This document shows positions 1-16,903 of a stretch of DNA of 16,903 nucleotides, piece after piece. Positions within the stretch are counted from its first letter, which is position 1. Every line of letters starts with the position of its first letter. The stretch is from contig JAAOMT010000288.1 in NCBI GenBank assembly GCA_016748015.1, positions 7,330 through 24,232 on the forward strand, written 5' to 3'. The notes beneath the pieces were generated by a model. The model did not search any database and had not been told where the DNA came from. It worked only from the letters and a program-made list of their open reading frames with translations. Origin of the DNA: Geosiphon pyriformis uo1 (Eukaryota > Fungi > Glomeromycota). The position numbers and the translations under genes were made by a program.

Positions 1-265
1 GTAAAAGAAAATAAAAAAAATCTAAAAGAAAAGAATTTTATCAAGAGAAACGTTTTCGATCCAGGCCTAGAGTCACTAACAGTTTATTCAAATTGGTAGC
101 TAATCAATTTCAAAATGTTAGTTGAGTTTTGAGGATTTTCCAAGTGTAATACTTAAAGAATTTGGTTTTTTGAATTATTTGATATTTATTTTTTTTGTGT
201 ATGTAGGAATGGTTCTAAGTGATAAATCTAAAGTAAGATATATTTTCTCGAAAAGAGAAGCTCTT

Positions 266-273
266 CTTTTATA
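266..273 (-). promoter_or_regulatory. TATA box in LTR (3' LTR copy; the functional copy is 9139-9146)
   Basis: TATAAAAG on the - strand, identical in both LTRs, about 50 nt downstream of the U3 repeat array. Confidence 0.6.
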
Positions 274-323
274 CAACTTGTTGTAACACTATTCTATGAA
301 CTTGAACTTTGCTATTTTCTACA

Positions 324-437
324 ATTTCACTAAACTAAAGATACATTTTGGCAAACTACAAGTTATTTCTGCGAACTATTAGATATTTTGGTGAACTATC
401 AATTATTTCGGCAAATTTCTACAAATTTTGGCGAACT
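324..437. repeat. U3 array of six 20-bp-period repeats with palindromic core ATTTCGGCGAACT (3' LTR copy)
   Basis: Cores start at 324, 345, 365, 385, 405 and 425: atttcactaaact, attttggcaaact, atttctgcgaact, attttggtgaact, atttcggcaaatt, attttggcgaact, separated by 7-8 nt variable spacers. Confidence 0.88.
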
Positions 438-619
438 TTTGAATGTTACATAGTTCGGGGTATTGCATGATTTGATCATCGCAATTAAGTAACATTTGTA
501 TTGTGTACAAATTGGGTTATTAATCAAATGATAATTTTGGACATTTTGCTAATGTAATAAGTGATAATTTGAAATGATAATATGCTAATTAATGATAGGA
601 TTTATAAAATAATTTCATG

Positions 620-1339
620 CTAAATAATATCTCTAATTTCATTTGGTAACATAACCTCCTCCTCAAAACTGAGCTCCGTTAAAGTCCAAGTACTGTCTGT
701 AATTTCCAGATAATAATCCAAAATTATTGAAGAAATTTGGTCTGAAAATTGTTGAAATTTCAGTTCTGTGAGCTTTCCAATGTATTGAATCTTCAAAGGT
801 CGTAATATTGGGTTTTGTAGGACATTTTCACAGGTGTGGAATAGGTCATAAAGTCTAAGAGCAGCTCTGAGCTTGTAGCAACTGTTTGTTGGTCCAGCTA
901 TTGTCTTGAATTCATTGTGGAGTTGCTTCTGAATAGCTTTTTTTGTGAGGTTTGCTGTTATAAGTTCCAGTTTCCATTTGTAAAGTGTTTTTCCAATGTG
1001 GAAATATCTATAGATTAAAGGATATTGAGTATTTTTCTCATTAAGACACAGTTGAAGTTTTTGTTGAATTGTAGCATTTGGTGAAATACTAATTGGAATG
1101 AGCATTAAGTTTTCTCTTAAAGCAAGCTATAAAAGTTCTGGCAGGTGAATTTCAGAATAACTTCTTGTGTTCTTCTTATATGGGTGATATTTTCGTGAAT
1201 TTGGGGCTAAATTTGTAACTACTTCTGTTTGGGTATAATTAATGTGGTTTTCAGTAACAATAATGAATAATTCGGGTATTGTTTTTAAAACTAATATTAA
1301 TTTTTGGGATAATTGTTGAATGTTTTGAAGAATAGTCAT
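620..1339 (-). pseudogene. Extra sense ORF3 of the LTR element (239 codons, one internal TAG), unknown function, overlapping the PPT and 3' LTR
   Basis: ORFs 1127..1339 and 620..1105 are in the same frame (234 nt apart), separated only by TAG at 1127-1129. ATG start at 1339; the stop lies inside the first 32 nt of the LTR. Confidence 0.82.
652..669 (-). other. Polypurine tract (plus-strand primer)
   Basis: The minus strand reads GTTTTGAGGAGGAGGTTA|TGTTACC, a T-run plus purine run directly before the 3' LTR. Confidence 0.88.
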
Positions 1340-1439: not shown

Positions 1440-2825
1440 TTAAGTGTTCAGGTTGGAAGGTTGTTTAATGACAACTATTGGTTCTAAGTTTCGGGAAATA
1501 TCTTCGGGATTGACTAAAGGGGAATGTGTACCAATTTGTGGAATTAATGGTTTAGGATTGTTTCTTGAATGATAGTATTTCAAATGATCTCCATGTGCAA
1601 CTTTTGCTAGGATTTTGTCATTAAGTCTTAGCTTGTATAATCCGTTGTCTAGAACTTCATGGATAAAGAATGGTCCATCCCATTTGTTTTCAAATTTTTC
1701 ACTCCATTGTTTTTCCATTTTAGTTCTGTGTAAGAAAACTTTGTTTCCAATTTTAAATTCATTGGTGACTGGAGGCAAATTGTTGTCATGCCATTCTTTT
1801 TGTTGAGTTTGGGAGTGTTCAATATGGGTGGCTGCTATTTGTTATTTTCCTTCCAATGTGCTAAGCAGAGTGTAGACTCTTTACTAAAGCATTTCTTAGA
1901 AATTGTTTTCATCGATTGGTTGTGCTGGGTATGTTTCCACTGTGAAACTAATTGGTAATGTTGCTGTCCTTCTGTAAGTTAAATCAAATGGTGTGTGTTT
2001 TGTGGTATCTTGTTTTAGTGTTCTATATGTTAGCAACACTGATGGAATAAAGATATCCCAATCTTGCTCAAAATTAGTTGAAACTTTGGCTAATAACTCA
2101 CACACTATTCTGTTAAAACGTTCCATAAGTCTATTTGTTTGTGGATGGTAAGGCGAAGACAGAGGTCTTTTGACATTGAATTGTTTACAAATTTCTTGTA
2201 TCAGGTTGTTCACAAAGTGTGTCCCCTGATTGAATAAAAGTTCAATTGGACATCCGTGTCTACAAATGATGTCTTTGTAAATGAAATTTGCTACTGATTT
2301 TGTATCTGCTCGTTGAATGGCTCTGGCTTCGAGCCATTTAGTAAGATAGTCTACCACTACTGCAATATAACAGTTTTTTTGAGTGGTAATAGATAGTGGT
2401 CCAACTAAATCAATACCAACTCGGTCAAAGGGTTGTCCAACTTTGATTGGATTTAATGGTTCAGTAGGATGTGTTCCTCCTTTTCTTTGACAACTATTTC
2501 AAGATTTGACATATTCGTAAATGTCTTTTCTCATTTGAGGCCAAAAGTAGTATTCTAGTGTTCTTTGGGTGGTGCTGTCTTTTCCAAAGTGGACTGATAA
2601 AAGATCTGAGTGCATGTTGTATAATATAGTCTCTTTTTCCTGTTTTTGTATTAATCTAAGTAATTTGTCTGGGTTTTTAAAATTTCGATGATAAATAATG
2701 TTGTTGTGTAGAAAATATTGTTTGGTTTGTTGTTGTAGTCGATGTTTTTCATCTGGAAACCAATCTGTTGGGATTGTTAATGTTTTCAAATATTATTTGA
2801 GATTGTTGTAGTTTTTCGAATTCAT
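1440..2825 (-). pseudogene. Integrase (HHCC zinc finger, DDE core, GPY/F module; no chromodomain)
   Basis: In-frame fragments 2499..2789, 1896..2357 and 1440..1778. Motifs: MHSDLLSVHFG..YFWPQM..S*NSCQ (HHCC, one Cys lost), PFDRVGIDLVGP, LFNQGTHF (second Asp mutated), YHPQTNRLMERFN, KWDGPF. Confidence 0.95.
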
Positions 2826-2876
2826 TGTTTGTTGGCTCTTTTAGTTGGTTAAGTTAAGTGTTGGTTTTTGTGTTTT

Positions 2877-4200
2877 CTAATCTTGTCTTATTCTGAAGAG
2901 ACAGTCAACGTTGGTGTGGAGTTTTCCTGGTTTGTAATGTACTATGTATTGATAGTTTGCTAGAAATCCTGTCCATCAAGTTTGTTTTGCATTCAGCTGA
3001 GTATTTTTGTTCTGAAGCCATTTGAGTCCAATATTATCAGTGATAATATCGAATTCTTTAGGCCTGAGATAAAGGTTGAAGTGGTATAGAGCCCAAATTA
3101 CAGCTGCTGTTTCTAGTTCTGTGGCAGGATAGTTTTTCTCAGCTGGTTTTAATGTTCTGCTAGCATAAACAATTACTCATTCATTTCTATTGTCATCTAG
3201 TTGTAATAAGATGGCACCAAAGGCAGTATACGAAGCATCTATAGCTAGTTAAAATCGGTTGCTGAAATCCGGGTAGGCGAGAATTGGAGCTGTTGTCAGT
3301 TTTTTCTTGAGAATTTCAAAAGCTTTTTGGTGTTTGGTAGTCCATTTGTATTCAACGTTTTTGGTGGTAAGCTGGTTGAGGGGTTTTGCAATTTCCAAGA
3401 ATCCTTTGATAAACTTCTGATAGTAGAATGCTAATCTTATGAATTTTCTTAATTCTGTAGTATTTTGAGGAGTTTTGAAGTTTTTGACAACGTTGATTTT
3501 TCCAGGGTCTGGTTTGATTCCATTTCTACTAATGATATGTCCAAAGAAGGCCAAGCTTGTTTTTTCAAAGTAGTATTTTTCGATGTTGAGTTTTAGTCCT
3601 GCTTTTTGTAATCATTGAAAAACTTCTTGCAGGTGTTTTAAGTGTAATTTGAACAATGGAAAATAAACATCAGTATCGTCAAGATAAATGACTACTAATT
3701 TCCAAAGAAGTCCTTGGTACACACCATCCATTAATCTCTGAAACGTTGCTGGTGTATTGCATAATCCAAAAGGCATTACATTAAACTCGTAATTTCTGTC
3801 TTGGGTGGTGAATGTTGTTTTGGGGTGATCTTTGAGATCCATAGCAACTTGCCAATAACCGCTTTTTAAATCTAGTGTTGAAAAGTATTTGGATTTTCCA
3901 AAGGCATCCAACATGTCATCAATCTGGGGAAAGGGGTAGGCATTTCCAATTGTAATACTGTTGAGTTGTCGATAGTCAACACAAAATCAGATCTTCCCAT
4001 TTTTCTTTTTAACTAGCACTACAGGTGAAGCCCAAGAACTCATGAAGAGTTGGATGAGCCCATTGTTAAGCATTTGTTGTACTTCTTCTCAGATGAATTG
4101 GTGGCTTTCTGGAGCAACTCGATATGCTTGTTGTCTTCTTGGTTTAGCATCTTCTATGTAAATTTGGTGTTAGACCAAATCAGTTCTTCCCAAGTCATGG
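2877..4200 (-). pseudogene. pol: Reverse transcriptase and RNase H domains of Pol
   Basis: One frame with scattered stops. YLDD at 3675-3686; FFGHIISRNGIKPDP; LTTAPILAYPDF; RNase H motifs IDASYTAFGAIL, YASRTLKPAEKNYPATELE, ITDN, YKPGKLHTNVDCLFR. Confidence 0.97.
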
Positions 4201-4718
4201 TTGTTTTCAGTGAAAATATTGGCAAATTTTGCAATTAGCTCTTTGAACTGAGTCTGTTGTTGTAGTTTAAGTTGTCCCATGTTGATTCGAAATAGTTTTT
4301 TTATGACAACATAGTAGTTTTTGGAGCTGGAGTTTGGGTTGATTTTTGGTAGTGAATGTCCAATAATTTCAGAAAAATCGGGGACTGTTTGGAGTAATTC
4401 TTGTTGGAATATATTACTGTGAATAACTCCAATTTCTAAATTATTTAATAAAATTATGGGGTAATTATTGGGATTGTAAAAAGTAATTCGGACTTTCTTT
4501 GTTCCTTCTGGAATATAAATGTTTGGGATTGAAATATTATGTTCCAAGCAGACTTGTTCATTGGACTCAAAAATTTGTTGTGTGGTTGTTGGCTTTGAGC
4601 AGGTATAGATTTCCGGATGTTCTCCAAAGGGTGAGATGGTAATCGGTTGTGGAAGTCTTAGAATCTGGTGAGATTTGTTCTGTGTGTTAAGAGCTATATT
4701 AACTGGAACTGTGAATCG

Positions 4719-5150
4719 TCCAGTTGAACCAAAACTTTGAGTTCCTCTATCGCTTTTTCCTAATTGTTCTCTTTGATTGACTAGTTGCAAACCCAAAATG
4801 TTGATTAAGAGTAGGTAAATAGCTTGGGCAATTTTTTCAGCATGTTCAATCTTAAATGGTTTGTCAGTTTCGTTTTGAAGCATTACTATAATGTCTCCAG
4901 TATATCCAGCATTGATTATTCCTCCTCTGACATTGATTTTTTTGCTTGCCAGAGAAGACCAAGAGGTGATTTGAACCATTGCTTCTGGTGGGATTTCAAG
5001 TGCAATTTTTAGGTTGATTTTTGTAAGGAATTTGGGTTTGAGAACAAGAGTATCTTTGCCTGAATATTTTAGGTCATATCCAGCATCAATTTCGTGTGCT
5101 TTTTCAGGTTTTATTCTTTGTTCGTTGTTGTTGAAGTATTTAAGTTGTAA
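4719..5150 (-). pseudogene. dut: dUTPase domain (trimeric family) embedded in the Gag-Pol frame between protease and RT
   Basis: All five motifs in order: DAGYDL; SWSSLA (RSS motif mutated); GIINAGYTG (catalytic Asp to Asn); EKIAQ; RGTQSFGSTG. Confidence 0.93.
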
Positions 5151-5269
5151 AGGAGACTGATTTTCAATAAGGTAGATAGGTGTTGTTTCACTTTTTTCTA
5201 TTACTTCAGGTTCTCCAAATTCAATTTTGTTCTCATTATTTTTGCTGGACAAGGAGATACTAAGAGTGT

Positions 5270-5870
5270 AGCATTCAGGACACCACTGTTCATCGCAAGG
5301 CATAATGTATTCTTCACATGGCCTAATGTTCATTTGCTCTAATCATTGAATTTGAGCTTCTTGGGTTGGGTAGGTGTGACTTGTAATTTGGTGGTAGACT
5401 TCTACTTTATCTTCGTTATTGAATTCAGCTAATTCTATGGTGTATTCAATGTATTCTGCTTCCTTCATTTGACGAACATCTTCTTTGGTAGCTCCATTAA
5501 TTAATGCTATTGCTAGATCGAAAATCATCTCAGCATCATAGGAGTAGTGATAAAGTTTGTTGAGAGCACTGTTGTATGCTGCATTAAAGGGTGTTCCTCT
5601 TTTTACTTTTTCTGAAATTAATAAAACATATTGGCAGGTCTGATCGCAGACTTTGCCTCTCATGGCTACATCAATCCAATTGCATTCTTTCGGTAGCATA
5701 TCTCCACAAGTCAAACAAGGGATATTATCACATTTTCCGCTCCTTTTTATTAGATGGCCCTATTGTTCTCTATGGCAAGCCTTGCAGTAATAACAAGTAT
5801 GATTCTCATATTCTTTTTCAGGTGAAATGCAGGCTTCCATTGACAATAGTTTCTTGTAGCAGTCTTTACA
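5270..5870 (-). pseudogene. Cys-rich region with three putative zinc fingers, in frame between protease and dUTPase
   Basis: CKDC-x24-CKAC(H); CLTC-x19-CDQTC; CEE(Y)-x8-CPEC. ORFs 5760..6014, 5343..5714 and 4170..5333 share one frame, separated by single stops. Confidence 0.72.
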
Positions 5871-6094
5871 TTTAAGGGGAATATAGGAGCGTTGTTTTCT
5901 TGGTTCGTATTTTGGGTAAGGGATATTCCATCCAGAGGTTTCGGGTTTAGTGTATGGGGTAAAATGTTCTTGTTTTGTTTCATCAGCCCAGTTGGACATT
6001 GATCCCAGAGCCATGAATGTTTCAATGAGAGATTTTTCTCCTTCTGGTTCGAATTCAAAAGCCGGGGCTTTTTCAGGGCATTTGTTGAATGTAC

Positions 6095-6465
6095 CACAAA
6101 TGGCAGGTACCTGGGTGTGTTGTCCTTGGTAGGAGATTGTTAACTCTTGTGTTTCCCAATTCAGATTAGCATTGGCTTTTTAAAGCCAATCATTTCTGAT
6201 GAGAGCTTGGTATTGGGGTGTGTTCATTACAAGAACTTTGACTGGAATGGTGATTCCATCAAGCGTGAATGGAAAATTGTCAATTTCTCCTACTGGGGTT
6301 TTTTTCATGCCATCAGCAGTGATGATTACTGTTTGAGCTGATCAGTCGACATTTCTTTTCAATTGTTGCATTAACTGGTAAGTAATAATGCTTCTGGCAG
6401 ATTTACTGTCTAAGATCAAGTGAATTGTCTTTCCTTCAACTTTGGTTTCAGTGTACATGGCTGTG
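6095..6465 (-). pseudogene. Retropepsin-type aspartic protease domain
   Basis: VEGKTIHLILDSKSARSII (decayed LILDSGSA active site; Asp codon at 6408-6410), IITADG flap, YQALIRNDWL (ILGxDWL-type motif). Confidence 0.88.
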
Positions 6466-7765
6466 ATTGCTTTTTGTTCATTGGCGGCTGCATTGCTAAG
6501 CAGAAATGGTGACTCATTTGCTTTGAACTCAAAAGGGAATATATCTGAAAGGTTAATGTTTTCAGCGATTCTGGCTGGTGAAATTGTGGTGAAAGTATAG
6601 GAAGGGTTTTGTTGTTGTTGTGCTGCAGCTCTACCTTCTGAGAGTGCAGTATGGTGAAAATTCTGTTCTTCCGGCATTGTTAAATAACTGGGTTGAGTGT
6701 GGTAGTGGTTGGGTTTTGGTAGAGTGGTATTTCGGGGAACCAATTGGTTGTTCGAACTGATTCTATTGTTGTTTACTTGGTATCGGTTTTGTGGTGTGAA
6801 TTGATTTTGTGTAATCAGTCTTCGAACAGGTATTTGATAATATTGTGTAGGTGGTTGTTGGTATTGCTGTTGGATTAACTATGGGGCTGGCTGATAATAG
6901 TTATTTTGGTATTGGGGTCTTGGTAGATAGTAAGCTGGTAGTGGTGATTGATAATAAGATTGCTGTGGTAGAGGGTAATGTTGATTACTCCTATTTTGTT
7001 GGTCTCATTGTAGCTTTCTGCAATCTTTTTTCCAGTGGTCAGAGATTCCACAGTAATGGCAATTCTGAGACTGGTTATTGGAAAGTGGTGCAAAGTTATT
7101 TTGATTTCATTTTTGGGATGGTTGATATCTTTGGGGTTGCTGTTATTGTTGATTGGTGAAATAGTTTTCAACCTTCTTTGTGAGTTGGTCAATTTTTTCC
7201 TCGGCTGCTGAGCTGGTTTCTCCAATTGCCAAATTTACAAGTTTTGTGCAGTTGGCCTCTTCCATGGCCATTTTGTATCTTTTTGCATGCTGTATGACAG
7301 AGTTTAAATCTTCTGGCACATGTGGGCGAATCTTTTTAATTAGTTTATCTTTTAGACTAGCAATAAATTGATCCAAGATTTGAGCATCGGAATAATAATT
7401 GTTTGTTTTAAGTTGGCGAATTCATCTGAAAAGTTTGTTGAATTTCCCAATATAAGTCATAACAGATTCAGAGAGTTCTTGTTTGATATTTCGAAAACGA
7501 TTGCGAAAGGTGATGGAGGTATTATTGTCAGTGAACTGTTCAAGAAAGGCTGCTTTGAAAGTATTCCAATCATTAAATGGGGCGGCCAAGTTTTAAAACT
7601 ATTCTCCTGCTGTTCTTTTGAAAAAGTAGGGAATTGTTCTTAACATTCTGGCAGCATTCCATCCATTTGCATCTCCTGTTTTAGTAACTTGATCAAGCCA
7701 TTTTTGGGGACTGGTCTCAATGTTTTCTCCATTAAATTCAGGATTTTTGTGATGTATGTTGTCAT
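6466..7765 (-). pseudogene. gag: Gag: capsid domain, CCHC nucleocapsid knuckle, Q/N/Y/P-rich tail
   Basis: First in-frame ATG at 7765 (MTTYITKI, then a -1 shift to PEFNGE..PQKWLDQV..ANGWN). MHR-like IKQELSESVMTYIGKFNKL. Intact knuckle CHYCGISDHWKKDC at 7020-7061. Continues in frame into the protease. Confidence 0.92.
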
Positions 7766-8519
7766 TTCATTTTCTTCATTTTCACTGTCTATTAATTCTT
7801 CTTCAGATATTTCTGGTTTGTTTTCTTCGTTTGCTGCTGTCTCAAAATGTTCACTTTGATTTTCAGCTAGAAAGTCAAAGAGATTGGAACTAGTTTGAAG
7901 GGATTTCTTGTTGTCTGATGGGACTTCTGAGTGATGTAAAATCTTCTGGTCTTGCAAATCAATTCAAGGGTAAATTAGACGTTTGTGCTTGTGCAAGTGA
8001 AACTGGAAAAAGTGTGATAGTAAGTAGAAGTTTTGAACTGGTTCCTTGTTAAAGTGTTTGTAAATGGTTGGCAGTTGTTTTTGGTAGTGTTGAAGTATTT
8101 GGGGTGGTTTTTGAGTATTGCTTCAATTTGTTTTTGCCTTTGTTGCTTGTTTCTGTTTCCAATTCAAAATCAATAGTGTATTGAGACTGTACTGGATATG
8201 TCTCTTCACAGTATTTAATAATGTTAAAATTAAGTTTGTAAAAGTAAGTGGCAAGTGTTTTGCTGTTAAGGTCTTCAGTTTCCAACTGTGAATAGTGTGC
8301 TAAATTATTGTAAAAATTGCTTTTAACTTCTGAGATATTGTAATTTCCAAAAAGATAATTGTTGATGCGGTTTTCAATGTATTGGTATACTGATTTCTTG
8401 ACAACTTTAATTCCGTCTGGAATGTTGAATTTTTGTTTGCAGTGGGTGTAAATTGATTGGTAATACTCTAAAGTTGTTGCGTCTGGTGTGGTTGCCACTT
8501 TGAATTTGTTGTTGCTGTG
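7766..8519 (-). pseudogene. AUG-less N-terminal extension of the Gag frame (about 250 codons), unknown function
   Basis: ORF 8049..8498 (GTG start, no Met) continues through stops at 8049 and 7959 and a 1-nt shift near 7903 into an acidic tract that leads to the Gag ATG. It is in net frame with Gag-Pol. Confidence 0.7.
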
Positions 8520-8523
8520 TTAT

Positions 8524-8541
8524 TTCCGTGGGAGAGCACCA
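8524..8541 (-). other. Primer binding site (18 nt, TGGTGCTCTCCCACGGAA)
   Basis: Follows the LTR end GGTAACA plus TT. The complement reads as a tRNA 3' end (..TTCCGTGGGAGAGC-A-CCA) with C61/C62 at the expected T-stem positions. tRNA identity not assigned. Confidence 0.88.
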
Positions 8542-9138
8542 AATGTTACCGGAGGTTTTTGGTCTCTTTTCTGTAATGTTGTTGATACTTGTTTGCTGTG
8601 AATTAACGTTTTCTGGATGTGATTGAACCTCCAGTAACTGAATTTTAACTTCAAATTATCTTTTATAATTTGAACTTGCTGGGCTTATAAGTGGAATGGC
8701 CAATTCCATGCCAGTTACTTTATGTAGTTATGTTGTAGTAAATGTTAACTCTTTCCCAGGAATTGCTTATCTAAAAGCTCACTAAAAATATGTGTAGTTA
8801 CTTTGCTGTGAAAATCAACTCTTTTACAGGAATCTCATCTGTAGGTTATCTTAATGATTGTAATAAGAAAAGAAAAAGAAAAATAAAAGAAATGTAAAAG
8901 AAATAGAATTTTATCAAGAGAAACATTTTCGATCCAGGCCTGGAGTCACTAACTGTTTATTGAAATTGATAGCTAATCAATTTCAAAACGTTAGTTGAGT
9001 TTTGGGGATTTTCTAAGTGTAATACTTAAAGAATTTGGTTTTTTGAATTATTTGATATTTATTTTTTTTGTGTATGTAGGAATGGTTCTAAGTGATAAAT
9101 CTAAAGTAAGATACATTTTCTCGAAAAGAGAAGCTCTT

Positions 9139-9146
9139 CTTTTATA
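9139..9146 (-). promoter_or_regulatory. TATA box of the 5' LTR promoter (TSS predicted near 9110-9115)
   Basis: TATAAAAG on the - strand, downstream of the repeat array. The TSS position is inferred from typical spacing only. Confidence 0.6.
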
Positions 9147-9196
9147 CAACTTGTTGTAACACTATTCTATGAACTTAAACTTTGCTATTTTCTACA

Positions 9197-9310
9197 ATTT
9201 TGCTGAACTAAAGATACATTTCGGCGAACTACAAGTTATTTTTGCAAACTATTAGATATTTTGGTGAACTATCAATTATTTTGGCAAATTTCTACAAATT
9301 TTGGTGAACT
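9197..9310. repeat. U3 array of six 20-bp-period palindromic repeats (5' LTR copy)
   Basis: Cores at 9197, 9218 (perfect atttcggcgaact), 9238, 9258, 9278 and 9298. Confidence 0.88.
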
Positions 9311-9524
9311 TTTGAATGTTACATAGTTCAGGGTATTGCATGATTTGATCATCGCAATTAGGTTACATTTGTGTTGTGTACAAATTGGGTTATTAATCAA
9401 ATAATAATTTTGGACATTTTGCTAATGTAATAAGTGATAATTTGAAATGATAATATGCTAATTAATAATAGGATTTATAAGATAATTTCATGCTAAATAA
9501 TATCTCTAATTTCATCTGGTAACA

Positions 9525-10658: not shown

Positions 10659-13600
10659 CAGATTTGGTTTGGAGGTTTGCTACATGTAATATTAGGAGCA
10701 TCAATGTTCCTGCAAAATTGGATGACATTGTTTATTGGCATAAAAATTTGGGTAACTTGGTTTCTATTGTTACTAAGACTAAATTAAGGTCTAACATTAG
10801 GCCATAGATTATGAATAAGTTTGATGAAGTTTGGATTTTTACTTCTGAGCTGGATGTAAGATTTTTTAGTGTTGAGATTGCTATTATTATGAACAGTTCT
10901 TTGGCTTATTATGTATCTAATATGAAAAAGATTTCTGGTCAGCTGATTTCTGTGTGTCTTTGTTTAAGAACAAACTTTCAGTTATAATCTTGAAGTTGTA
11001 TACTAGTGCTTTTATTGATGTATGTTTTAACCAAGCTTTTGATATCAATTTTTTGATCTCTAAAGTGGTTAATTCAAGTTTTTTTACAGTTTTGAATGGT
11101 GACTTCAATGAAAATAAAGCCAAAAGAAATGCAAGTTTCAAGTTTTGTGTGGATCTGGGCTTGGTTAACACCTTTAATAAATATTCTTTTACCAAAGCTT
11201 CTACTTGAAGCAATTTCAGAGGTGTAAAAAAGGTGATAGATTTTATTTTTGTGAGTGGAAATCTGGCTTCTGCTGTCACATCACATAGAGTTAATGACAT
11301 ATCTAAATTTTTTAATATGGATCATAAGTCAGTTTCAATTTCAATTAATTTGGGTAGACTTTTGAACACTTGTCTTATCAGCACTCATAAACAGACCAAC
11401 TGTAATCAGTGGAAGTTTAAATTGAAGAATGCTAATGAGACTTAATGGTTGTATTTTAAGAAGTGTTTTTCTGCTGAGTTGTTAGTTAGATCCACCACAT
11501 TTGGAAATACAAAAGACAATGATGACTTGGATATAATATAGAAAGTGTTAAAAGAAGCCATGATACAAGCTACTACTAAGATGTTTTCTAAGAGTTGGTA
11601 TAGTAAGTATGATTGTTCAAGGAACAAACAATCTTCAAAATTCTATAAATTGGAGCTGTTTATTGCTAAGATTGTGAGATGTTAGAATTCAGAAGATTTT
11701 CTGAATTTTGACTGTCTAGTTAAAATTTGGTCAGCTATTGATATGGTTGAGACATCCAAGATTACTAGTATAGTTCTAGATAGTAAAAGTTCAGTAAAAC
11801 TGCTTAGGCATTTGTCAGTAGTAAGGAAAGGGTATTGAAGATCTAAGTTTTATAAGTCAAAAACTGCTGAAAACACAGCTATTAGGAAGGCAATTAACCA
11901 TTATATGGAAAAGTTTTGTTCTAACAAAGAGCATATAATCAAGAGCATTTTGAAATACCCATTTTGCAAGGTTGTTTTGGATTACTTGGTAGTAGATGAT
12001 GCAATAGTGATTGAGCCTGATGAAGTAAAGCTTAAAATTAATGAGATCATAGAAAGATGAAAAAAAAAATAGTCAGTGCTTTTGAAGATGCCCAATTTTT
12101 GGTCTTATTAATATATGTCTTTAGATTATGTGAATGATAATGCTTTCTCTGGTGTAATGAAGGTAATTAACATGAGAAAATTGTCTTTGGTTGTTAACAA
12201 TTTGCCAAATAACAAAGCTGCTGAGTTGTTAGGGATACTTAATAAACTTTGAAAACACTATAATAAAAAGATGTTGGTTTGTCTTTTAACATTATTAAAT
12301 ACATGTTGGCTTTGAATACAGTTCCAATTTTCTGGAAAAGAGTATGGGTTTCAATGATTCCAAAATTTTATGAATGGAATGGCATATTAACGAACACTAA
12401 GCCTATTGTATTAATTAAGACTGCTCAAAAAATCTTGTCCAAGATTTTTTCCGACCAAATATCTTCAACTTATAGCAAATTTAATGTTCTTTATGGTAAT
12501 AATTTTTTAGTGCTGAAGGATACTTCAACTCAATCTTTTATTTTTGCCATTGGGTCAATTGTTGAAGATGCTTTAGAGAAAAATAAGAAGTTCTGGCTAG
12601 TATTATAGAACATGCACAAAGCTTATGATTTGATAGGCTGGTATTATCTAAAGACTAGCCTGTATTACATTAAAATATACAATCAGTTTATTGGGTTTTT
12701 TGGTAACATTTATGAGAATAGAATTAATAAAGTAATAATAAATTTTGGGCTTTCAAACAGTTACAAAGTACATGATGGTTTAGATCAGAGTGAAGTCTTT
12801 TCTTCACTTCTATAGAGGATCTTTTATGATCCACTTTTGTGTGAGATAAAAAAACATAAACACTTATATAGATATAGAATTAATACTAGGTTTATGGTAA
12901 AGTCTGGTAAGGTTAAAGCAGTTAAAGGAAAAACTTTTTTTTTGGCAGCTGGCGCCTTTGTTGATAATACAATTTGGATTGGAAGTTGTCAAACTTCCAC
13001 ACAGCATATTTTGGATATTGCTAATAGATTTTTGAAGTCAATAACATTTCAATTAATAATGATAAAATGGTAGCTATTCTGATCAATTAAAGCATCAAGT
13101 TTGCTTTACTGTTAATTAATGGTCTGCCAATTTCAATTGCTAAAAGGAATAAGGCACACAGATACTTGGGCATTTTTTTATCCACTAAGGGTCTCTCTAA
13201 GCCTAGTTTGGCTTAGGCTCATATGAATGTAAGATTTTTTTCTAATGTTGTATTAAGAAAAACTATCATAGATAAACAATTTTCTTACTTGGTTTCAGCT
13301 ATTTTGTAGCCAATTTTTAGCTATAGAATGCAGTTTAATTTTGTCTCTGTGGTTGTATGCCACAAGTGGAATGTAATAATCAGAAAAAGTTTTAAAGCCA
13401 AGACTGGTTTACTGTGTAATTTTTTAGTGAGGTTTTGCATCATCCATTTTTGTATGATTTAAAATTTTTTGAGCAAGTACAGGCTAAAGAGAAGCTGGCC
13501 ACACTGATTTTTTTCTCCAATGCTTATGGCATTATTGGACATTTGTTTAAACATAAGTTTTTAGATATGCAGGTTTTGAAGTGATCTTCTTTAGACTTTT

Positions 13601-15321
13601 TACAATATTTTGTTAGATTGTAAGTTAGTCCAGTAAATAATTTTTTGGCTGGTGTAATAAAATTTTTTTTGAAGAATAAGCTTTTTTTGGCAAACAATCT
13701 GCCCAATGCTTTTCATAAATCCAGCAAGTTTCTAATATCTAGAATCTTGGGGTATTCCTTATATTATAATTGTGTTTTTTTTTGAAATAATTTAGTGTTG
13801 CTTTTAATGATAGGCTTCTGGACAAAAGAGGAAAGGTAATAAACTGGAAAATGTTTTAGTAGTAGAAAAAGTTAGATCTAAGAGGCTCTGTATCTTACTT
13901 GTTCATTCTAGCTACTGAGTTTATGAACAAGCAAGTTTTTTTAAAGGCTAACTCTACTAATACTTCTGAATTACCAGTGCTGAATGTTTTAGAATCTGAG
14001 GCATTTTTTAATGTCTATGGTAAACTGATGAAAGTTTGGTCTAATTGTATTGAGATCTACACAGATAAGTTCTTAAAGAGTGCTAGTTCTGCTAAGATGG
14101 CAAGTGGTGTGACTGCTTATTTTCTGGCCACAAACATGGGTATTGGGGTTAGAGTGCTTGGGCTTTTGTTTTCTATTTTGGCTGAATTGCAAGCAATTGT
14201 TTTGGCCTTAGAGTATATTCTGTTTTTTTGTGTTATAGTTTTGTATTTGTACAGCCAATTTGCAATTGATACTTGTATAGCAGAGTTTTTTTTTGTTATG
14301 CTTAATTTTTGCAATTATTGCTAGATTAAGAGATTGCATATTGTCAATTTTATCAAGAATAAAAACATTTTGGTTAAGTAGGTAAAAGTTAAAAGACATT
14401 CTAAGGTTCTGAACAATATTAAGACTGATAAATTAGTAAGCAAGACTGCTTTTTTTTCACTTTTTTTACCAGTTGAGATTCGGAAATAGATTCTGGTGGC
14501 TAAAATACTGCTGTATTTAGTAACACTTGTCATTTTGTTTGTAATCTGTACTAATTAATTTGCTGTGCTTAATAAAAGGCTGGTTCTGGCTATAGTGTTG
14601 TTTAAAATGTCATGATTAGGAGAATAGATTGGAATATTATTGTGAAAGTTTGGCATTTTGATTTACATATGCTCTCTAAATTTACTAGTAAGAGCTTGGC
14701 TAGTATACATACTTACCTAATGAAAGCAATACATAAACAATTGTTGGTGGCAGTTAGGAAGAGATTATATGACAAAGATTATCCTAAGGTGCTGTGCTTG
14801 CTGTGTGGTGAAGTGGAGGTATCTGATCATGTTTTTACTTGTTCTGGTGATATTGAATTCCATAAAAACATTTTGAATAAAGCTGCTAAGAAATGGGTAT
14901 TGTTAACTGGTTTTTCCTGTTCATCAAATGTTTTATGTTCACTTTCAATGTGCTTTTCTGACATAGGCTTATACTCTGCTATATGCAAGAGTTTCATATT
15001 AAAGAATTGGTTTGCTGAAACCATCCAAATATTTGAGGAAAAAAAAAACTGCTTTGGTTTTTATTAAATATGTTAAGTTTGTAATTGAATTACATTATTC
15101 TAACTAGATCCAAACATAGGGTAGATATAAAGAAAGCTGGTTTAATCAAGAATAATGGCATGGTTTCAAAATTGTCTCAATGTTTAGTATTAATATTGTC
15201 AGATAAAATGATTCATATGCTTGGTGTTTTGGAATCTTTTGTTGTCAATTTTGATAGACACAGATTGTGTCATTTTTTTTCTGGTTTGAATGATGATGTG
15301 TGTGTTTGCATAAATGTGTAG
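10655..15321 (+). pseudogene. LINE ORF2: AP-type endonuclease, reverse transcriptase, RNase H, C-terminal Cys/His finger
   Basis: APE: MTDLVWRFATCNIRSIN, LNGDFNE, IDFIFVS, MDH. RT: MIPK..NTKPIVL, NMHKAYD, GLDQSEVFSSLL, AFVDN (12957-12968, decayed FVDD), RYLGIF. RNase H: IYTD (14058), AELQAIVLAL, VKVKRHS. CLLCGEVEVSDHVFTC at 14795-14842. Many stops and frameshifts. Confidence 0.93.
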
Positions 15322-15444
15322 TGTAGTTTTGTCTGGTTCGAGTGACTGGTCATATGTAGAAAGTGCATGAACTGTATTTAGTCTGTTCCACTTAGTTTGG
15401 TTCTATGTACTAAATAGCAATTAGGCTTTACTTATTAAATTATG

Positions 15445-15470
15445 TAATAAAAAATAAAAAATAAAAAATA
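15445..15470 (+). repeat. LINE 3' A-rich tail, (TAAAAAA)n
   Basis: taataaaaaataaaaaataaaaaata, about 125 nt after the ORF2 stop. Homology with the second LINE copy ends here. Confidence 0.75.
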
Positions 15471-15582
15471 GTAATTGTAAAAATAAAAACATAAAAAATT
15501 ATAATTAAAATTCTTTAAAATATTCTTTATATTTTTTAAATAAACTGGTATTTTTAATATTGCTTTAAAATAAAAACCAAAA

Positions 15583-16903
15583 TTTTTTTATTATTATTAA
15601 ATATTTAATAAATAAAGTCTAATTGCTATTTAATATATAGAATTAAATTAAGTAACTTAAACTAAATACAATTCACACTTTTACTACATATAATCAGCCA
15701 CTTAGATCAAATAAGACAACATTAAATGTCTATACAAATATATATATTTTTATCTAAACCAAAAAAAAACACTGTTTATATCTACTAAAACTAACTGCAA
15801 ATGATTCTATTATACTAAGCAGTTAAACTATTTTATCTAATAACATAAATATTAAACAACAAGACAAACCTAAAACTATGTCACTATCTTTGACCAATCC
15901 AGCTTTTTTTATGTCTATTTTATGTTTTGATTTCATAAATTATATCTTAGTTTAATGCAATTCTACCAGATTTTTTATATATTTAACAAAAACAAAAGTC
16001 ATTTTTACTCTTTCATTAAAAACTATAGCAGTTTTAGCATAATAATTTTTTAGCACAAATTTTTTGCAAATTGCCATATACAAATTTACATTTAATAAAT
16101 ATTAAGAAAGTATTTATAGAACAGCAAAAAAAGATAAGAAATAAGCACTTATCAATAATATTTATTTTTTAAAAGCTTTTAACAAAATATTTTCTTAAAT
16201 ACTACCATCTTTAGTACAATCAAAAACATGCTCAGATAATTTTACTTTACTACATAACAAACACAGTACACCAGAATATATTTTATTATACAATTTTTTT
16301 TAACTGCTACTAGTAGTAACTTGTGCATAGCTTTTATTAAATACATATGCTTATTTGCAGACTTTTTACTAGTAAACTCAGAAAACATATGTGAATTAAG
16401 ATTTTAAATTTTTATGGTAGTTAGCCAATTTACTTTCTTAATTAATGTATTCAGAATTATATTATATTCAGAATTGGTCTTTTATTAAATACAACAAATA
16501 TATATGTATAAATTACAAACAAAATAGCAAGTATTGCCAAACAGAACTATATTTTCAGCCATTATAAAATGTTTTTAAATCCCAATTGACAGAAAAAAAA
16601 AAAAGTAAGCAGTTTTATCTACTATTATATTAGCTTAAATATTGCTTAGAATATTTAAATAACTTTAATTTTTATCCATATAACAAAAAAATTTTCATTT
16701 CTAATCAAATTAGCAATATGTTTTCTCTCTATTTAACACTAATTATAAAAGTCTGGTATAGCAAATAAAACTTCAGAAACACACGCATCAATAATAAATT
16801 GGCTATACAAATATAAAATTACTGTATAAAAAAATAGAATACACTTTAAGAATAGTACAATAATCTGTAACTTGGCTATTGTAAAGAACAAAATCTTATG
16901 TAT
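15583..16903 (-). mobile_element. 3' part of a second, more decayed copy of a related LINE (RNase H, Cys/His finger, 3' UTR, tail); continues beyond the window
   Basis: The reverse complement aligns collinearly to about 14154-15450. It translates as HMFSEFTSKKSANKHMYLIKAMHKLLLVAV and CLLCSKVKLSEHVFDC (16216-16263), with ORF2 stop at 15722-15724 and tail at 15583-15599. Not visible in the ORF track. Confidence 0.9.

Follow-up and report, generated by a model that had tools for sequence, protein, structure and literature searches.

Extended forms of Gag that start at a non-AUG codon are known in a single group of retroviruses and in one domesticated gene. According to the sections of PMC3542737 cited here, the glyco-Gag of MLV (gPr80gag) begins upstream, at a non-AUG codon in frame, and gives an N-terminally extended Gag beside the Gag made from the AUG; the start is a CUG and the extension carries an ER signal peptide. 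PEG10, a domesticated mammalian host gene, is Gag-like and uses a non-AUG and a downstream in-frame AUG start, as demonstrated by mutagenesis in the part of PMC2800197 used, and its CUG start adds 34 residues. For ORF I-III of RTBV, passages of PMC5902531 and PMC3542737 describe a non-AUG start followed by scanning over about 900 AUG-less nt; there the ORFs are separate, the start is an AUU and a uORF-dependent shunt is involved. Among the fungal Ty3/gypsy elements, Tf1 and Tf2 of fission yeast have a single Gag-Pol ORF that is cut by the protease (PMC7175516, in part), the Gag of Tf1 is nuclear (PMC3856414, in part), and the portions of these two papers considered mention no non-AUG extension. 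PosPlaTy3-5 has a dUTPase between protease and reverse transcriptase (RT), and such dUTPase-bearing fungal Gypsy elements (PosPlaTy3-5 and those of Phanerochaete and Tuber) were placed among chromodomain elements in the section of PMC2864245 cited. In the literature within our scope, outside which most subscription journals lie, we found no mobile LTR retrotransposon with a non-AUG extension of Gag.

The window analysed here is a stretch of 16,903 nt from the genome of Geosiphon pyriformis. Judged by its sequence, the minus strand from 9524 to 1 is a decayed Ty3/gypsy retrotransposon with a dUTPase, laid out as follows.

8544 to 9524, minus strand: 5' LTR, 981 nt, with TG...CA ends and a 7-nt terminal inverted repeat
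8524 to 8541, minus strand: putative tRNA primer-binding site (PBS), 18 nt, starting with TGG, 2 nt past the LTR end
1440 to 7765, minus strand: gag-protease-dUTPase-RT-RNaseH-integrase, one reading frame broken by stops
620 to 1339, minus strand: extra 3' ORF, about 240 codons long, which starts at an ATG of its own, has a single stop within and ends inside the LTR
655 to 664, minus strand: polypurine tract (PPT) before the 3' LTR, recognised from its sequence
1 to 651, minus strand: 3' LTR, cut by the window edge, with an R/U5 part (238 to 1) that lacks ATG

The two LTRs were identical at 621 of 652 positions (95%, 5' LTR against window positions 1-651). Their terminal inverted repeat was read directly from the sequence, the end of the 5' LTR at 8544 mirroring the LTR start, and the contig depth rises about 3-fold at this end (8520-8565). 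The summed contig depth over the LTR (8520-8850) exceeds that of the internal region several-fold; depth is not copy number, and the excess is consistent with many solo LTRs. The match of the PBS to a tRNA 3' end follows from general tRNA geometry, and we take the site to be a likely PBS. Tf1 self-primes, whereas the Geosiphon element differs from Tf1 and Tf2 in its tRNA-type putative PBS and its dUTPase. In the U3 of both LTRs there is a 20-nt tandem repeat of about five degenerate copies (9198-9330 and 345-457), just upstream of a TATA-like box that lies near 9145 in the 5' LTR. From this box we assumed a transcription start site (TSS) near 9110.

Nine ORF pieces from 8519 to 1440 lie in frame with position 8498, and therefore gag and pol make up one ORF, now decayed. 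Pfam found dUTPase, RVT_1, RT_RNaseH_2, rve and SH3_Tf2-1 on the ORFs of the window, and the RT matched the Gag-Pol of Ty3-G with an E value of 5e-29; Retrotrans_gag, Ty3_capsid and the protease families were matched on relatives of the element and not on the window ORFs. The element thus has the traits of Ty3/gypsy (Metaviridae), namely two direct LTRs with TG...CA ends, a putative PBS, a PPT, the order gag, protease, RT, RNase H and integrase, and an RT and capsid of Ty3 type. A chromovirus carries a chromodomain at the C-terminus of its integrase; the last pol ORF of the decayed window copy had only SH3_Tf2-1, with a score under its cut-off, and no chromodomain was matched by Pfam on the window ORFs. 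In this the element would differ from the dUTPase-bearing fungal Gypsy elements, with which it was compared by description only. Between protease and dUTPase, about 280 in-frame codons (5343-6179, minus strand) hold several C-x2-C pairs and have no Pfam match; the same insert occurs in relatives such as P0008 and P0110 and is possibly an uncharacterised zinc-binding insert in Pol. The extra 3' ORF (620-1339) had no Pfam match and no informative match in the ESM Atlas, and the 234 nt right after its start are also free of ATG.

The part of the element that resembles the systems above lies between the LTR and the capsid.

7780 to 8706, minus strand: ATG-free stretch, 927 nt, comprising the LTR end, the PBS and the extension
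8496 to 8498, minus strand: candidate near-cognate start of a long Gag, GTG in C-AAA-GTG-GC
8199 to 8480, minus strand: four-helix N-terminal domain predicted by AlphaFold2, codons 7-100
7766 to 8198, minus strand: P/S/T/Q-rich linker, predicted disordered, basic and then acidic, interrupted by stops and a frame change in the window copy
7763 to 7765, minus strand: first fixed AUG (Met 91/115), at the boundary of disorder and capsid, the proposed start of a short, capsid-first Gag-Pol

A first-pass annotation of this DNA had seen no CAT on the plus strand from 7780 to 8706, where it expected roughly a dozen, and only five (7768, 7777, 8707, 8836 and 8924) from the TSS to the Gag ATG. Our recount gave the same five and no minus-strand ATG in the stretch, and the computed expectation was 11.3 from mononucleotide and 8.7 from dinucleotide composition. 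Further CATs lie at 7763, which is the Gag ATG, and at 9114. The resulting gap of 930 nt exceeds all other CAT gaps in the window, the next being 476 nt, and the majority read differences (the 40 listed of 93) would add no new ATG. The density of ATG was 21 per kb in U3, 0-5 per kb from the assumed TSS to 7766 and 18-21 per kb in gag-pol.

It is conceivable that the gap is an accident of the window copy, made by chance, composition or mutational decay. Methionine is a rare residue and the linkers are low in complexity. At least 8 of the 128 triplet/strand rows in the window have a gap larger, relative to their own mean spacing, than that of ATG; because other triplets show such gaps in a compositionally patchy window, the gap alone cannot carry the case. 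However, when 7780-8706 was compared with shuffled controls, as the annotation had proposed, only one of 5000 dinucleotide shuffles was without ATG, and none of 500 shuffles of the whole window reached a gap of 930 nt (maximum 761). Decay at CpG makes ATG from ACG and does not remove it, and the same pattern recurs in three families with 20-26% identity in the extension region. We regard an accident as very improbable, and chance as an explanation is already largely refuted.

The gap includes a portion of the LTR (8544-8706), and the GTG at 8498 follows it closely: with the LTR ending at 8544 and the PBS running from 8541, the codon comes 25 nt after the putative PBS. The usual place for a Gag start is just past the PBS. 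The first-pass annotation had proposed AAA-GTG-G as a start in good context, which agrees with our scan from 8603 to codon 13, where no other in-frame near-cognate codon combines A at -3 with G at +4; the remaining one is an ATT in poor context. An ATG at this position in the family would have spoken against the proposal. Among the 117 gene models that reach the codon, Val stands in 104, with Met in 9, Leu in 2 and Ile and Ala in 1 each, and GTG is thus the state of the family. Most of these Mets come after unrelated upstream exons, and position 8498 is absent from the 40 listed of the 93 read differences. The annotation also counted about 250 Met-free codons in frame with Gag. This is true for the family, in which the extension has 244 codons and no column with a Met majority before column 245, the capsid start (Met 91/115). 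It is not true for the frame of the window copy, which is broken by two in-frame stops between 8498 and 7904 and by one or more frame changes between about 7900 and 7740.

The family sequences were the best 120 of 418 protein matches to the extension, and all of them were gene models of Geosiphon pyriformis with 79-93% identity; we call them family A. When 1.84 billion representatives were searched with a profile, 203 matches were obtained. No homologue of the extension outside this species was among the matches listed (150 of the 203), and of ten weaker ones examined, eight were from Geosiphon and two were ENA proteins that aligned in the capsid part only, hence we found no extension homologue beyond the species. 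The DNA of other copies or relatives gave no confirmed locus in viral contigs, metagenome contigs or prokaryote genomes. In a divergent subfamily B, to which one marker assigns 13 models, the linker is re-written and still Met-free, and the subfamily's Met lies one codon earlier. Family C was found through one gene model that carried a second Gag with a homologous extension, and the extensions of A and C matched in a profile-profile comparison with an E value of 2.3e-5 and 22% identity. It had 93 matches; 72 of 94 sequences reach the start, and Val occupies it in 63 of the 72, nearly always after Lys. For family D the best 120 of 142 matches were taken, of which 93 had the anchor motif; Val was found in 90 of these 93, after K in 77 and after T in 10. 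The extensions are 244, 293 and 315 codons long in A, C and D. The family evidence consists of automatic gene models on decayed copies of one species, spurious introns included, and the independent lineages are three families at most.

In families C and D, as in A, the extension starts with (K/T)-V-A. Over the three families, the front Val varies to Met 14 times and to Ile once, whereas other Val columns vary to Ile 226 times and to Met 16 times. Since this Val changes to Met and almost never to Ile, the codon is probably GTG in all three families. Some of the front Mets arose as artefacts of splicing in the gene models; such splices also need xTG. The preceding residue, K (or T in family D), gives an A at -3, and the next residue, Ala or its G>A/C>T products, gives a G at +4, the key positions of fungal near-cognate starts in the part of PMC5487733 consulted. 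Val precedes the first conserved Leu by 9, 10 and 11 residues in A, C and D, and in one alignment (A2) the Val of family C is one column off; because of this offset, the equivalence rests on position and context together and not on one alignment column. Upstream of the GTG, three different frames are joined in the copies of family A (35, 8 and 15 of 120; 44 are other or spliced and 18 lack the motif), and family D has at least five variants. With both families variable upstream, coding conservation ends at the GTG, as far as gene models can tell.

Fixed Met was also missing from the extensions as a whole. Columns with at least 60% Met numbered 0 of 849 in the extensions and 8 of 601 downstream in the three families (p 8.5e-4); this cut was picked after column 178 of family C had been seen (Met 38, Thr 27, n=66). 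With a plain majority the counts were 1 of 849 and 9 of 601 (p 0.002), and at column 178 some members of family C may have a genuine in-frame AUG. The capsid-start Met is kept in A, B, C and D though its neighbours differ. Avoidance was not limited to the Gag frame, because in the window copy the 244 codons of the extension hold 2 out-of-frame ATGs (13.6 expected, Poisson p 1.3e-4) and the 2100 codons downstream hold 117. Both ATGs of the extension precede a Glu that has turned into Lys in 44% and 52% of the copies, over a background of 13%, and this excess appears to be the mark of an ancestral CpG. Likewise, N/D/H/Y-G junctions look like NAC/G (the slash marks the codon boundary) more often in the extensions than downstream (19 against 29 junctions, p 0.002, three families pooled); by family, p was 0.02 in A, 0.048 in D and 0.37 in C, which is not significant alone. 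In the family alignments generally, C>T/G>A decay is heavy among the copies, amounting to about 35-55% at CpG and 10-20% elsewhere, and the pattern suggests strong methylation-driven deamination of repeats in the Geosiphon genome.

The same decay bears on the upstream ATGs of the leader. The annotation had noted that the ATG at CAT 8924 (8926 on the minus strand) is ACG in the other LTR, and we saw this ACG in the 3' LTR. The indications of an ancestral ACG are thin at the other two LTR sites: about three read-through models at 8838 and two at 8709. If all five ATGs of the leader and extension were decay products, the active RNA would be AUG-free for about 1340 nt, which is plausible and only partly shown. 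The ATG at 8709 weighs against GUG initiation, because it has a strong context and 30 gene models start there. It might be the genuine start of a uORF, the GUG and the AUG then being reached by reinitiation or shunting as in plant pararetroviruses. The leader is structured (z -2.98 for 620 nt, 20 shuffles), which may hinder long scanning, and 8709 is absent from the majority read differences (the 40 listed of 93). However, the two read-through models have ACN or a G>A product there, as expected of a decayed ACG. Moreover, the frame that follows differs among copies through a 1-nt indel at 8676, and a uORF of 17 to about 53 codons is long for reinitiation. We consider a genuine uORF unlikely.

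The structured leader also holds a near-perfect 27-nt palindrome at 8960-8986 that folds as a long hairpin and may be a dimerisation or packaging signal.

AlphaFold2, run with an alignment of the three families, predicted four helices over residues 7-100 of the extension with a pLDDT of about 90. A longer model reproduced this domain; in it, the pLDDT of the linker was below 50 at residues 105-250 and the capsid fold began at about residue 251, which would put the conserved Met at the boundary of linker and capsid. The linkers consist of 38-44% P/S/T/Q, with 7-10 basic residues in the first 45 and 6-8 S/T-P pairs. Coding constraint on the extension, for which the annotation had called, is supported by homology across families at the 20-26% identity given above and by the confident predicted fold. 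Searches with the N-terminal domain by Foldseek had best E values of 1.6 in the PDB and 0.17 among viral structures, the best hits of a VIA fold search were unrelated helical proteins (Z 6.8, rmsd 3.4, 99 aligned), and the ESM Atlas gave nothing usable; searches without a clear match show neither a new fold nor the absence of one. The N-terminal domain has more sub-variants (P0251, P0257, P0246, P0272 and P0277), some joined to the linker and capsid of family A or B, which suggests that families have exchanged domains or that these gene models are chimeric.

A hydrophobic anchor was not seen in any of 280 sequences (118, 69 and 93 per family), none of which reached a 19-residue hydropathy of 1.6 in the first 120 residues. 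Therefore, the likeness to glyco-Gag that the first-pass annotation drew holds for translation only: an in-frame near-cognate start in an AUG-free leader is present at the level of sequence, and the membrane anchor is not. Compared with MLV, the Geosiphon element has a GUG, an extension of 244-315 codons, a predicted soluble helical domain and a fungal Ty3/gypsy context without env. In contrast to PEG10, its families are mobile, add a whole domain and have 730-950 nt free of fixed AUG. As in RTBV, the main AUG follows about 900 nt of AUG-less coding sequence; it differs from RTBV in that, in the gene models of the families, this upstream part continues in frame into Gag-Pol.

We propose that initiation at the GUG combined with leaky scanning yields a long and a short Gag(-Pol), and we put the probability of this reading at roughly 0.7. 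Ribosomes would scan from the cap, and a minority would start at the GUG just past the PBS to make a long Gag(-Pol), in which the predicted four-helix domain sits on a disordered tether in front of the ordinary protein. The majority would keep scanning past the AUG-free extension until the capsid AUG, where they would start the ordinary short Gag(-Pol). Because gag and pol share a single frame, each product would be a polyprotein that the protease cuts, by analogy with Tf1. GUG is second to CUG among near-cognate starts (PMC5666671, in part), and inefficient non-AUG starts lead to leaky scanning according to the section of PMC3542737 cited. No notable hairpin was found downstream of the GUG (z -0.82). 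The long Gag, as a small share, may co-assemble with the short one, and each particle would then display a few helical domains on flexible tethers. Speculatively, the basic, T/S-P-rich linker and the helical domain could act as a sub-stoichiometric module for targeting or docking, for example in nuclear entry. The annotation had suggested that AUGs were removed to allow a near-cognate long isoform beside AUG-initiated Gag, and the recurrence in families C and D argues for this.

The main rival is an AUG made by splicing. An LTR exon ending in A, joined to the TG at 8497, would create A/UG for the long Gag, and unspliced RNA would be scanned to the capsid AUG. The long protein would be identical, and the AUG-free leader would be accounted for as well. 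The context AAAG/TG would also fit a splice acceptor, which counts against GUG initiation; AG/TG exists whenever an A ends the codon before GTG, the LTR has four loose donor-like sites with an A in front, and a few gene models use the 8498 acceptor (the L/M-A variants). On the other hand, most gene models leave this acceptor unused, and its pyrimidine tract is missing, with 3 T in the 25 nt before GTG. No canonical donor is preceded by A, the sole branch-like motif is 109 nt upstream, and the GTG context fits the fungal start consensus. A splice-made AUG is thus an alternative to be taken seriously but rather doubtful; the uORF at 8709 and an internal transcript like that of Ty1 are less likely.

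In the latter case the genomic RNA would give one product, a GUG-started long Gag cut by the protease, and short Gag would come from a separate internal transcript. Both steps have precedents, since Tf1/Tf2 process a single ORF by protease (PMC7175516, in part) and Ty1 p22 is made from a sub-genomic transcript, as stated in the part of PMC8458377 seen. Such an arrangement leaves unexplained why ATGs are avoided past the GUG, in frame and out of frame, in three families and up to exactly the capsid Met, and we believe it to be quite improbable.

Returning to GUG initiation with leaky scanning, the AUG-free feature is real, and by comparative evidence, which is strong, it is probably a variant of a known translation strategy. 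We lean towards a broader reading, that a whole fungal Ty3/gypsy lineage fixed the GUG and cleared AUGs from 0.7-1.3 kb of sequence, with the result that each particle has a few long Gag molecules with an undescribed four-helix domain. With the same leaning, we see in this domain a translationally dosed accessory module that was kept across families sharing a fifth to a quarter of its residues. If this is true, retrotransposons gain another means of setting the dose of a minor structural protein, a new helical domain associated with Gag is defined, and the annotated starts of Gag in such elements are wrong. Gene models that enter an ATG-less frame through invented upstream exons would then make up hundreds of the Geosiphon 'hypothetical proteins'.

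Outside the element, decayed ORF pieces at 12267-15067 on the plus strand resemble non-LTR RT/RNase H text that is fused in several Geosiphon gene models. They had no Pfam match, and we presume from general knowledge that they are LINE-like RT/RNase H. At 15274-15769, in very AT-rich DNA, there is a pair of inverted repeats of 187 nt, 71% complementary and 122 nt apart, which is possibly a foldback or MITE remnant.
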